Source of the DNA: Yuukianura sp. NJ FZ-2021
Lineage: Eukaryota
Assembly: GCA_046563655.1 (NCBI GenBank)
Contig: CM102285.1
Location: forward strand, 10,726,001-10,790,000
Length of the DNA: 64,000 bases
Reading direction: 5' to 3'
The notes under the pieces were generated by a model. The model did not search any database. It saw nothing but the letters and a program-made list of their open reading frames with translations, and was not told the origin of the DNA. The position numbers and the translations under genes are program-made. Numbering within the stretch: position 1 is the stretch's first letter; every line of letters starts with the position of its first letter. Positions 2,949 to 15,150 of this stretch are shown here, piece by piece.

Positions 2949-4500
2949 ATGGATAAGGACAAAAATCTCAATCGCAGCAAAGTTGCATTGATTACAGGAA
3001 TAACTGGACAGGTAACTTTGTCCGGAGTTTCTAACGGAGTTATTTGTAATGATCACACGATTTTAACTTAATTAAAACTTTCGCTCCTCAACCTTTACAG
3101 GATGGATCATACTTGGCGGAACTCTTGTTGGACAAAGGTTACTCAGTCCACGGTATTATTCGGAGATCATCAAGTTTCAACACTGGAAGAATTTCGCATC
3201 TTTATGATGACCCGAGGTCACACAGAGAAGGAAAAATGAAACTTCATTACGGTGACATGACTGACAGCAGCTGTTTAGTAAAAATTATAACACAAGTCCG
3301 TCCGACAGAAATTTACAATCTAGCAGCTCAAAGTCACGTTCAGGTATTACAGAAACAAAAATATGGAACGATTTACTAAATTAAATTGCTAAAGCTCATT
3401 CTGTCTGTAGATTTCGTTTGACATGAGCGAGTATACTGCCGAAGTAGATGGCGTCGGAACGCTGAGAATTCTGGATGCTATTCGAACATGCGGCATGGAG
3501 AAAATCGTCCGCTACTATCAAGCCAGTACATCCGAACTTTATGGTAAAGTACAAGAAATACCGCAAAAAGAAACGACGCCATTTTACCCCAGGTCTCCAT
3601 ACGGTATGAACGCAAACAACAACGAAATAATCTAATCAACTGAATGATACTATTTTGAAAAGTTATCAATCTGAACACAGGATGTGCCAAACTGTTCGCG
3701 TTCTGGACTGTCGTAAATTACCGTGAAGCCTATGGAATGTTTGCATGCAACGGGATTCTGTTCAACCACGAGAGTCCACGACGAGGAGAGAATTTCGTGA
3801 CTCGTAAAATTACTCGCTCCGTCGCTAAGATTGCGCTAGGTCAACAACAATTTTTTGAACTTGGAAATCTGGACGCAAAGAGAGATTGGGGACATGCCAA
3901 AGACTATGTCGAGGTATCCATCAAGTATAAATTCAGAATTAACTGTAAACTGAGCTATCCCTTACTAAACTGTTTCCTTTTACGTATAGGCAATGTGGCT
4001 AATGCTCCAGCAAGAGGAGCCGGAAGATTTCGTCATCGCTACTGGAGAAGCACACAGTGCCAGAGAATTTGTCGAAGAAGCTTTCAAGTGCATTGGAAAA
4101 ACAATTGTTTGGGAGGGCACTGGACTTGAAGAAGTTGGAAAGGAAGAAGACACTGGAATAATCCGTGTCAAAGTGCATAAAAAATTCTTTCGTCCAACAG
4201 AAGTGGTGAGCATCTGATTCATCTATACTGTGAAATATCGTTGATATTCGAAACTAAAGTGTCCCTTTACGATATTTAATTTAGGACTTTCTACTTGGAG
4301 ATCCAACAAAGGCTAAAAACGCATTTGGTTGGGAACCAAAAATCAAGTTCCTGGTAATACTCATTGCTTAGAACTCATTTCTCAACTTTAGAATAAAATG
4401 TAGCGAACAAGTTCATAAATATATTCAATATTTTCAGGCTCTTGTCAAGGATATGGTTGAAGCAGATCTGTTGCTCATGAAAACTAATCCAAACGCCTAG
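2949..4500 (+). CDS. GMDS: GDP-mannose 4,6-dehydratase, 7 exons
   Basis: Exons 2949-3011, 3101-3343, 3411-3603, 3681-3913, 3990-4205, 4285-4353, 4438-4500, all GT-AG and in frame. Motifs [74 protein letters not shown]. Confidence 0.97.
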
Positions 4501-5667
4501 GCACTGCTGACTGTCAATGACCAAACTAAAACCTGAATTCGGATGCAGCCAAATCCTCAGCAGCTTCAAAAAAGTAAAGTTACCATTCGTTCCCAGCATT
4601 CCCAGCAACATTCAACTCTTGTGGAATATTTTTACAAATTGAAACTTTCAATTTGAAAGTGCAAAAGCCTTGCCTGTCTAATTTTAAACTCATAAAATAC
4701 GAATAAATAAGAATCGTTTCACAACAAAAACTCGAATTTTCCTGAAATTGATCGTAAGTTCATATTCAGAAGCGAATTCAAATTCGGTTGGACTATCCAC
4801 AACATCTTCCTGAGATGCCAAGATTTGGCGTCCGTCAAAAACATTCCGATGTTTTGTTTTTGTCATCTAAGATTCCAATTCCAATGTGTTCAAAAAATGT
4901 GGTTGACAACCTTACTTTTCATCCTTGTCGGCAACTTTAGCGTTTTTAGGAGTGAAAGTAAAACAAAATTTCCAGTTTTTATGATCTTTTTGTTAAGTAA
5001 ACGGATATTTAGGAAGCGTGGAAGCAGAAGGTGGCCTCCCTCATCGTTTCTAATAATCTGTACTAGAATAATGCTCCCCAATGTCTGTTTCAATGTTTTC
5101 TTATTTATCTCTTCAAAATCTTTAAAACTTTCACACACACACAGAAGTATACTACGCAGAGACATGCCCAGACTACGCTGATGCTCAAGAGACTCCTGAA
5201 TAATCGCTGCCTTTTAGTCAATACGGTTCTTCAACAGACGCTCCCAATGTTTTATTTTTCCATCATCAACCGCCCGTATCAACTAAACTCTCACAAGAAG
5301 GTAACCTACAAATAACTGACTCTCACATTTTAACCGCTAAATTACTAAACAAAGACACTAATTCTATTGCTCGTTTCAGGATATGATAGTTTTCCTTTGG
5401 AGAAACAACAACAATGGGGAGGGTAATAATAACATATCGATGCAAAACCAACAAACACATCGCAAAAAGAAAAAACACTAAAAAATCCAAAAGTCTTTAA
5501 AAACGTTAACTTGGCTTGGTTCCCTCTCTTTTTAGGTTTTTTGGAACCAGAGCGTCCTTCAGTCCAAACCTTGTCGTGTGCCAAGAAACAATTACACGTG
5601 TATCTAGTACTACGCTGTCCAATATTTACAATTCTTGTTCAATTTCTACACAAGTTTCTATTTAAAA

Positions 5668-12300: not shown

Positions 12301-12810
12301 ATATTTTCCTTTCTACAACACCCTCCTCCCTTTTGATTGTTGATCTTTCTCTAAAAGTTGAGTTGGTGTGTGGTGTTTTTAATTCAGACTTACAACGTAC
12401 AGTGTTCCGACTTGTTTTTACAACTCAAATTTTGGAGTAGTCAAAAAACGGAAATAATAAGGCGCATTCAAATAATTTCTGTTTTCAAAACAATCAAATT
12501 ACTGTTTTGATTCCAGCTTCAAAAACATCAACATCTTCAGCACAAGTTAAAAACTCTAAAAAGTTTTTATTTCAATCCAACACAAACAGTCGAACAGTTC
12601 CGCAGTCAAAGGCCGATGAACTGTGAAAGTTGGTGAAAGTCGAGACCATAATAGAAATACTTGCGTGTTTGCTGTAATTTGACCACACTGATTAACATCT
12701 CTAGTGAATAAAGTGAAAGTTCACCTTTTGACCTCCCACTACAGAGAAAATTAAATAGTTTTTGAAAAAAAAAGTTGAAAGTTTACATGGACACTTTCTT
12801 TCCGAGAAGA

Positions 12811-15150
12811 ATGCATACTTTATTTGGAGATCAGAATGCCTACTACAGGCATCCCAATTCCTATTCCCAAGCACTTCAGCCCATGTCCGCTGGAATGACC
12901 TCTTCGGCCTATCCCTACGAACAATACACTGCAATGACCCGGTATGGCCCTTATGCTGCTGCTCACTATCCAGGGTCAACACAGTCAGTTACGTCAAAAG
13001 ATATGGTCAAACCACCATATTCGTACATTGCTCTGATAGCAATGGCTATTCAAGCAGCTCACGACAAGAAAATAACGCTCAATGGAATTTATCAGTTCAT
13101 CATGGACAGATTTCCTTACTATCGTGAAAATAAACAAGGATGGCAGAATTCCATCAGACATAATCTCAGTCTCAACGAATGCTTCGTCAAAGTGGCTCGA
13201 GATGACAAGAAACCAGGCAAAGGTCAGAGTTCACTGTTACTAAAAGTGGCAACATTTTGTTAGCAAGCAGACGCGGAAACCAGCTACTTCTTAATTTCTA
13301 TAGATAACGTTAGAGTTAACGTTAACGTTAGTTAACGTTTTTTTGAATTTGCAACTTTTCGAAAACAAAGTTATCGAGATTTTTAAACTTGTTCAGTGTT
13401 ATGAAAGTCTACGCGAAACTTTCTCTTTTCGAACTTACACTTCCACTTTTCAGAAATTTTTACACTAGGCGTTAAATCGAAATGAAAATTTGGTTTTTAG
13501 CGGCTTGGCTGAGGGTAATTTGACGCTCCATTTAGGTTTAGTTTTTTGTCGGGAATTAAGAAGTTTATGAGGGTTGACGCTGAGCGTTGTGTTCAAGCAC
13601 TTAATCTTTTTTACCATCTTTGTGTCGTTTAAGGGAGCTATTGGACCCTTGACCCTGACTCCTACAATATGTTTGACAACGGATCCTATTTGAGACGCCG
13701 ACGACGGTTCAAAAAGAAAGATGCAACGAAGGACAAGGAAGAACCGATTGTCAAAAGACCCTATCAATCCAGCTCACAACCCCAAAATCCAGCATCCGAT
13801 AGACTCTCAATCAGTTCCCAACTGCTCGGATCGACCTCTGACCTCTCCATTTCCTCCCGCCATTCCACAAATCATCATCATCACTCTGTCTTAACCAAAG
13901 GTCAGCAATATGGATCACTTGGTGGCAGTTCCTTCCCACCGTCGCTCCACCACCACCATCATCATGGTCACTCCAACAACAACAACATTGTCATCAACAT
14001 CAACACGTCCAATAGCCTGTCTCCATCGGACGCTACCCACGGCCAACAGCAGAGACTCCTTCACTCGGCTCATGGAGGAGGTTCAGCTTCAGGAAACATT
14101 CATATCATAAATCGTAACGGCTCATCGCCTCTCATAAAGGCTGAACCCATTGACATGAAGGTGGATGTCGTCGGTGGGAGTGGTGGTGGGAGTAACGGGA
14201 GCGGAACGGTGGCGACAGGCACTTTGGGTGACACCACTCCAACTGGCAAATTCAGTTCGAGCTCATCAACTTCCTCATCTCGAGCATCCTCTACAACACC
14301 GACCGGAATTGGCAAGTTTCTGCCACATCAAAGATTCGAATCTTCCGCGGGATCGGACAAAACGGAAGTGCTTGTCGTTGGCGGTTCAGGAACTACCGTA
14401 TCTGTGTCATCCATGACCGTATCGACCTCTCCGACACCAAATCAGCACAGTTGTATTGCCGGAAGTTCAATTCTGGACCATCATCATCATCATCTCCATT
14501 CCCAAGTCACCCCGTTCAGTGTGGACAGTTTGGTGACAGGGTCTTGTCGAAGTGACATGGACACTCTCAGCTACCACCACGCTGGTCACGGTCCCATGAC
14601 GGCTTTTGGAAGTCGGTCGTTAGTCAATTCTGTGTACGGTGGCAGTGGGAATGGTTCATACTGTCACTATTCTCCTATGATGGGTCACGAGGGCATGATG
14701 ACAGAGTGTCACGGAGGTCAAGGTGGGTCAATGGCTCTGGGCCAAGGATCCCCATCGGCTGAGCATCAACATCAACAGTACTTGGGAGGTCGTGGTGCGT
14801 CTTCCTGGTTTTCAGCAAGCATGTCCTCAGCCAACACTAACAATAACAACGACCATCAACATCAACAACATACTATTCATCAGGCACAACATGAGGTGTC
14901 AAGTGGCGGAGGAGGTGTGACTGTCAACACAAGTAGCGGTGGTGGAAGTAGCTCTAATCCAAATATCACTAATCGAAGTAGTAATCAAGGTAATAGCAGT
15001 GGTAGTCCCGTTAGTTTTGAATCTCCAACAGGATCTGCATCTTCATCTTCAAGACATTCAGAACTGTATGGAGGAGACGCCAATAGTCCACCCCTACATC
15101 ATCAAATTGCGTTTAGAAATTCTGCGTATAGATCGTACTATTCAACTTGA
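12811..15150 (+). CDS. FoxC: Forkhead box protein C (crocodile orthologue), 2 exons
   Basis: Exons 12811-13222 and 13634-15150. N-terminus MHTLFGDQN is croc-like. [19 protein letters not shown]...[68 protein letters not shown] is diagnostic of FoxC. eh1-like FSVDSLV. Alternative in-frame ATG at 12787. Confidence 0.96.
13304..13338. repeat. Short array of palindromic AACGTT units in the FoxC intron
   Basis: ataacgttagagttaacgttaacgttagttaacgtt read directly. Confidence 0.6.

Follow-up and report, generated by a model that had tools for sequence, protein, structure and literature searches.

We analysed a 64-kb window of contig CM102285.1 from the springtail Yuukianura sp. NJ FZ-2021, in which the gene for GDP-mannose 4,6-dehydratase (GMDS) lies directly beside a cluster of three forkhead genes. 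On the plus strand the order is GMDS, a FoxL1-like gene, FoxC and a FoxF-like gene (Table 1); read in reverse it becomes F, C, L1, GMDS, with GMDS transcription directed at the cluster. The locus is probably the springtail copy of an ancestral bilaterian neighbourhood, in which GMDS stands at the FoxL1 end of FoxF-FoxC-FoxL1 with its 3′ end facing the cluster. A preliminary description of this DNA had placed the end of GMDS about 1.2 kb before FoxL1, with FoxC following, and its coordinates proved correct, the gap being 1,167 nt. The gene identities and the order GMDS-FoxL1-FoxC-(FoxF) were likewise supported by Pfam, alignments and trees, FoxF being a putative identity based on a signature and on its position.

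The splice model of GMDS comprises seven exons (2949-3011, 3101-3343, 3411-3603, 3681-3913, 3990-4205, 4285-4353 and 4438-4500) and gives a spliced product of 359 aa with an open and intact frame. All six introns are of the GT-AG type and measure 89, 67, 77, 76, 79 and 84 nt, which amounts to 472 nt of A+T-rich sequence (30.5% G+C) and agrees with the 60-90 nt given earlier for their approximate size. Four exons, queried separately, matched the profile PF16363 GDP_Man_Dehyd colinearly (positions 9-303 of 332, E 1e-20 to 5e-36). The closest public protein, of 360 aa, was identical to the model at 335 of 358 positions (94%) with zero gaps. This relative is encoded on a contig of 1,413 nt, which has no room for introns besides its 1,083 coding nt; the relative therefore appears to be transcript-derived and to support the splice model. 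The same relative scored 608 bits against human GMDS (PDB 1T2A), end to end, and 465 bits against the Escherichia coli protein 1DB3. Among springtails, the window protein was 84% identical to that of Orchesella cincta and 82% identical to those of Allacma fusca and Folsomia candida; identity was 78% for the dragonfly Ladona fulva and 72-75% for brachiopod, gastropod, hagfish (74%) and sponge proteins. Most alignments to family proteins showed no gap across 349-358 aa, the exception being Allacma (361 aa, 3 gaps). The model carries ITGITGQDGSYL near the N-terminus and also PYGCAK, which we take to be the glycine-rich dinucleotide-binding motif and the catalytic Tyr-x-x-x-Lys, respectively, both presumably hallmarks of GMDS and the short-chain dehydrogenases/reductases.

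In a GMDS tree of 32 rows with supports from the Shimodaira-Hasegawa-like approximate likelihood-ratio test (SH-aLRT), the window gene nested within Collembola (SH-aLRT 96) and Collembola within the hexapods beside the insects (92), with chelicerates, spiralians and a sponge falling outside the hexapod group. Because this tree follows the species tree and puts the window gene inside Collembola, vertical descent is indicated, and GMDS is, as judged from its sequence, a vertically inherited springtail orthologue and no stray paralogue. The possibility of a translocated paralogue, which the preliminary description had named as a way in which its reading might fail, is at odds with this tree.

The FoxL1-like gene and FoxC share a strand, the former lying 6.4 kb upstream. 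The database search with its protein was restricted to proteins of 128-408 aa, which left out most of the FoxC proteins, as these are long; by hand count, 81 of the 120 matches listed were named FoxL1 or fkh-6. We then compared forkhead domains in a FastTree tree of 193 rows, among which there were no labelled FoxL2 or FoxF references. The FoxL1-like gene fell into a clade of 138 tips (support 93) that took in every one of the 12 rows named FoxL1 but no row of the 12 named FoxC, and its closest neighbours were proteins of Allacma and Orchesella dallaii. The evidence for FoxL1 rather than FoxL2 is weaker and consists of the position beside FoxC and of a ranking of PDB chains in which FOXC2 (145.7 bits) stood above FOXL2 (142.7 bits), as it also did for mouse FoxL1 (178.1 versus 170.1 bits). 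One near relative has been named FoxL2 automatically by UniRef. The window protein shares MQPY at the N-terminus (5668-5679) and FKIENLI at the C-terminus (6340-6366) with its springtail and other relatives, and the Ladona Fox protein has FTIENLL in place of the latter. We assume that FKIENLI is an eh1-type motif known in FoxL1. A metagenome scan for FoxL1 relatives with flanking sequence gave 116 pattern matches, none of which was confirmed by tblastn.

For FoxC, a clade of 16 rows in the same tree (support 97) held the window gene together with all 12 FoxC-named rows, and the forkhead domain was 96% identical to that of Tribolium crocodile. Exon 1 matched the Folsomia 'forkhead box protein C1-A' over its full length at 81%, Allacma at 77% and an Orchesella cluster at 85%; further matches mostly bore crocodile or FoxC names, mixed with unnamed rows. 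The third forkhead gene separated from both the FoxC and the FoxL1 clades. It is read as FoxF on the basis of its position in the cluster and of a putative FoxF signature, the comparison containing no labelled FoxF. Look-ups of the window forkhead proteins in a protein atlas returned generic forkhead clusters with no subfamily. A tblastn search with the forkhead domain found three such domains only in the 64-kb window, and the lack of a fourth forkhead gene there fits the loss of FoxQ1 in mandibulates described by Schomburg et al. (2022, PMC8918179).

Table 1. Features of the window, and GMDS and Fox entries found together on one scaffold or contig (or, for Orchesella dallaii, two Fox entries) in other species.
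Feature	Position or identifiers	Strand	Basis or context
GMDS (GDP-mannose 4,6-dehydratase)	2949..4500	+	Splice model, Pfam PF16363, gap-free protein alignment, tree
GMDS-FoxL1 spacer, 1,167 nt	4501..5667		GMDS stop to FoxL1 ATG
AATAAA, the sole one in the spacer	4702..4707	+	Motif scan; 202 nt past the GMDS stop
FoxL1-like, single exon, 233 aa	5668..6369	+	Pfam Forkhead E 2e-37; named matches; tree; tblastn with relatives
FoxC (crocodile orthologue), 2 exons (12811-13222, 13634-15150), 642 aa	12811..15150	+	Model, Pfam, named matches, tree
Peptidase M28-like	24098..25878 (extent approximate)	-	Open reading frames; Pfam PF04389 E 1.3e-07; between FoxC and FoxF-like
Third forkhead gene, read as FoxF, 2 exons (30183-30918, 31306-32348), 592 aa	30183..32348	+	Model, Pfam Forkhead
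Ladona fulva	Fox J437_LFUL002511/KAG8240370.1; GMDS J437_LFUL002512/KAG8240371.1		Consecutive identifiers; one 2.29-Mb contig
Folsomia candida	GMDS OXA63014.1; FoxC OXA63016.1		One accession between; 28.5-Mb scaffold
Elysia chlorotica	FoxC EGW08_005285; GMDS EGW08_005289		Three locus tags between; 780-kb scaffold
Orchesella cincta	GMDS ODN02270.1; FoxC ODN02247.1		One 272-kb scaffold
Orchesella dallaii	FoxC CAL8101877.1; FoxL1-like CAL8101880.1		3 accessions apart; 6.18-Mb scaffold

Since GMDS lies tail-to-head just upstream of FoxL1, the spacer between them must house both the GMDS 3′ untranslated region and the FoxL1 promoter. Its single AATAAA is likely to be the GMDS poly(A) signal, as suggested by the motif. 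To assess the assembly, contigs of four short-read runs from two studies were mapped on 2000-16000; five public runs contain 2800-6500. All four runs gave contig depth in 30 of the 30 bins, in overlapping pieces. One piece of the second study covers the 3′ end of GMDS (3925-4740) and one of the first study extends in the spacer as far as the start of FoxL1 (4818-5694), while no single contig among those listed bridges 4500-5668. Related species have the same arrangement, which speaks against a misjoin at this junction. We estimate the odds that one named gene abuts one end of a three-gene cluster by chance at about 1e-4, assuming some 20,000 genes, and the GMDS-Fox neighbourhood recurs in other lineages.

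We examined this recurrence through the order of locus tags and accessions in public annotations, which serves as a proxy for gene order. In Ladona the Fox and GMDS entries follow each other directly, and the Ladona Fox protein aligns to the window FoxL1-like protein across 226 aa, past the forkhead domain. The gastropod Elysia has a FoxC (83% identical to the window FoxC) close to GMDS, and Folsomia has the pair almost adjacent. Thirteen species, matched by hand rather than by a systematic survey, were present in both the GMDS and the Fox match lists. GMDS and a Fox gene shared a contig in seven of them: Ladona, Folsomia candida, Elysia and Orchesella cincta, and also Bacillus rossius, Nasonia vitripennis and Prorops nasuta, where only a large scaffold is shared. 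By the criterion of Irimia et al. (2012) the locus qualifies as a conserved ancestral microsyntenic pair, as no gene separates GMDS from FoxL1 in the window and one separates it from FoxC. The GMDS-Fox pair is found in hexapods (counted as one lineage or a few), a gastropod and vertebrates. The preliminary description held that the linkage is ancestral and no local accident, and would have given this up if no other protostome had it. Identifiers place the pair in springtails as well as in a dragonfly and a gastropod. The claim is borne out by the neighbourhood that Ladona fulva, Folsomia candida and Elysia chlorotica share with the window and by the vertical inheritance of GMDS.

The linkage as such has been published before, and the novelty implied in the preliminary description falls away. 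Wotton and Shimeld (2006, PMC1634998) list FOXQ1, FOXF2, FOXC1 and GMDS at human 6p25 and FOXF1, FLJ12998, FOXC2 and FOXL1 at 16q24, in accordance with the human arrangement that had been quoted for this locus. Irimia et al. (2012, PMC3514665) dated 593 conserved microsyntenic pairs to the origin of Bilateria, and their Figure 4D takes foxc1b and gmds, the 'nondevelopmental partner', to exemplify such a pair and a putative regulatory block. Foxc1/Gmds was also named as a "deeply conserved" microsyntenic association by Marletaz et al. (2023, PMC10115646). Schomburg et al. (2022, PMC8918179) described the F-C-L1 cluster in 32 panarthropods, Folsomia and Ladona among them; the main text of that paper appears not to discuss a flanking GMDS. 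In the open literature searched, we found no paper that reports GMDS next to the Fox cluster of an arthropod or mollusc, locates it at the FoxL1 end or remarks on how short its introns are; such species may be listed in the supplement of Irimia et al. (2012). The ancient GMDS-Fox linkage is therefore real and already known, and only the very compact form that it takes in this genome is new.

Human Fox genes presumably point towards GMDS, and we take human GMDS to be transcribed towards FOXC1; the springtail Fox genes differ in that they are transcribed away from GMDS. As in the published Foxc1/Gmds pair (PMC3514665, PMC10115646), a gene of the Fox cluster lies near GMDS, and GMDS, as the non-developmental partner, takes up the outer end. 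However, the springtail GMDS directly adjoins FoxL1 and not FoxC, whereas the vertebrate 6p25 list, as given in PMC1634998, is without FOXL1. Moreover, the springtail GMDS introns total 472 nt, in contrast to a human GMDS intron that holds conserved elements 194 and 290 kb from FOXC1 (PMC9597995). Compared with the bilaterian FoxQ1-FoxF-FoxC-FoxL1 cluster (Mazet et al. 2006 and Shimeld et al. 2010, cited in PMC8918179), the springtail keeps F, C and L1 in order within 27 kb and lacks FoxQ1, as described for mandibulate arthropods (Schomburg et al. 2022), but its FoxC and FoxF are split by the peptidase M28-like gene on the opposite strand. The locus also resembles a genomic regulatory block (Kikuta et al. 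2007 and Becker and Lenhard 2007, cited in PMC3514665), in that a developmental transcription-factor gene is locked to an unrelated housekeeping neighbour across phyla. Here, though, the bystander GMDS is without long, element-rich introns. A block held by intronic enhancers has long bystander introns with conserved non-coding elements, and GMDS introns of 67-89 nt do not have this form.

While the position and the vertical inheritance of the neighbourhood are observed, how its linkage is maintained is something we infer. The explanation that we favour, though tentatively, is a regulatory block without intronic enhancers, combined with promoter crowding, in which GMDS would lie inside or at the edge of the Fox cis-regulatory domain. 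The upstream control DNA of FoxL1 would then comprise the approximately 0.95 kb from the GMDS poly(A) signal to the FoxL1 start and, in addition, DNA at GMDS or on its far side, and a break between GMDS and FoxL1 would damage FoxL1 regulation. The GMDS introns would not be the site of Fox control elements, and the bulk of Fox regulatory DNA would probably lie in the spacers within the cluster (6.4, 8.9 and 4.3 kb), which are large for this genome. Because the six GMDS introns sum to only 472 nt, intron-trapped enhancers are implausible in this genome, and they are no credible lock here; the earlier doubt that they could account for the linkage stands. The regulatory explanation does not thereby fail, since enhancers beyond the bystander GMDS would also give a block. 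A further and more doubtful proposal is that the linkage has been selected even without room for intronic enhancers, the constraint being positional, unlike that of the intron-trapped vertebrate enhancers. Such a constraint could come from Fox elements beyond GMDS, or from a GMDS transcription unit that shapes the FoxL1 promoter or the edge of the domain.

Several observations weigh against an ancestral neighbourhood that is kept together by regulation. No regulatory element was identified in the window and nothing there shows sequence of the GMDS region acting on a Fox gene; the window includes just 2.9 kb upstream of GMDS. Adjacency in the other species rests on the order of identifiers rather than on coordinates. 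GMDS and Fox genes were on different contigs in 6 of the 13 species matched by hand (Cephus, Athalia, Dinoponera, Phymastichus, Periplaneta and Allacma), of which the Periplaneta split possibly comes from two assemblies and the Allacma contigs are under 21 kb. In several Hymenoptera the linkage has become looser or has disappeared. From these six species and the three that share only a large scaffold, it follows that any constraint on the linkage is breakable. In zebrafish, foxc1b is the copy that retains gmds, yet no conserved elements were detected alongside it (PMC9597995).

The hymenopteran losses, the zebrafish result and the minimal size of the GMDS introns, with no sign of embedded elements, would all suit neutral persistence. 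The pair would simply never have been separated, as a tail-to-head spacer of about 1 kb is a tiny target for breakpoints, GMDS would not matter to the Fox genes, and the lineages retaining the pair (springtails, dragonflies, molluscs, vertebrates) would be those that rearrange slowly. We consider this rather unlikely. Only about 1-5% of gene pairs are common to humans and other lineages, and pairs kept in at least four lineages had a false-discovery rate below 0.0002 as judged from randomised genomes (Irimia et al. 2012, PMC3514665), whereas the GMDS-Fox pair is present, at the least, in hexapods, in a gastropod and in vertebrates. Alternatively, a constitutively active GMDS might mark the edge of a repressed, Polycomb-type Fox domain, so that an insulating position and not enhancers would be conserved. 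GMDS does lie at the outer end of the cluster in both the window and vertebrates, and in zebrafish the histone mark H3K27me3 spans foxc1b but not gmds (PMC3514665, Fig. 4). In the skate, however, boundaries of topologically associating domains are missing between the partners of syntenic pairs such as Foxc1/Gmds (PMC10115646), and we regard a boundary role as improbable.

An artefact or convergence, by which a misjoined assembly or a translocated, lineage-specific GMDS paralogue would have come to lie by the Fox cluster independently, is the least credible explanation, and we give it hardly any weight. The want of a single listed short-read contig across 4500-5668 would allow a misjoin, and a second GMDS copy might lie outside the 64-kb window. 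Against this, the contigs of the four runs tile the whole mapped region, related springtails and the dragonfly have a matching neighbourhood, and the GMDS tree agrees with the species tree. A springtail copy of the ancestral neighbourhood thus remains the reading that we prefer.

Other features of the window were also recorded. Within FoxC, exon 2 (13800-15100) has long His, Ser, Gly and Asn runs of low complexity and the highest G+C of the region. The FoxC intron (13223-13633, 411 nt) and the FoxF-like intron (30919-31305, 387 nt) occupy the identical forkhead position and phase, past the first base of the Gly codon ending PGKG, and the FoxL1-like gene is intronless; the common intron could be inherited via tandem duplication or gained in parallel. 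At 13286-13442, a contig of the second study swaps 155 nt of the FoxC intron for 145 other letters, and two runs of the first study also have contig breaks at 13442; the replaced letters and the breaks mark a structural variant in this intron. The gene between FoxC and FoxF-like was considered as an MTHFSD-like bystander, after the MTHFSD/FLJ12998 gene that separates human FOXF1 from FOXC2, which was ruled out by its identification as peptidase M28-like. Downstream of the cluster, at 35027-43323, a gene for an RsmB/F-type (NOP2-like) methyltransferase and the WDR19/IFT144 gene lie about 1 kb apart, and this tight packing contrasts with the multi-kb spacers around the Fox genes.

Upstream of GMDS, the stretch 1396-1988 is repeat-like: its open frames mirror each other on the two strands and gave no match in Pfam. 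The stretch could be a small mobile element. It includes a 35-nt inverted repeat (1903-1937 and 1954-1988, 86% complementary), which, apart from forkhead paralogy, was the only repeat within 1-16000. Rfam gave no match at the gathering score across the 64-kb window. Among the public sequences used for comparison, the Elysia chlorotica FoxC model RUS86960.1 looks faulty, with half of the forkhead domain repeated. The model of the duck Aix galericulata protein KAI6077628.1, named 'FoxC2', also looks faulty: it has two forkhead domains, of the FoxC type and the FoxL1 type, and neighbouring genes have probably been fused in it.

Taken together, these results supply further examples of a published ancient neighbourhood, from hexapods and a gastropod, and resolve its FoxL1 end, and they fit an ancestral order FoxF-FoxC-FoxL1-GMDS. 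They leave the current understanding unchanged and are of modest importance. The springtail locus nevertheless offers a tractable test case, with the entire block within about 30 kb and the long-intron enhancer explanation excluded by size alone, and springtails amenable to laboratory culture could reveal what truly holds such pairs together. If the constraint is indeed positional, the compact springtail locus would be a natural experiment that separates the models of linkage.

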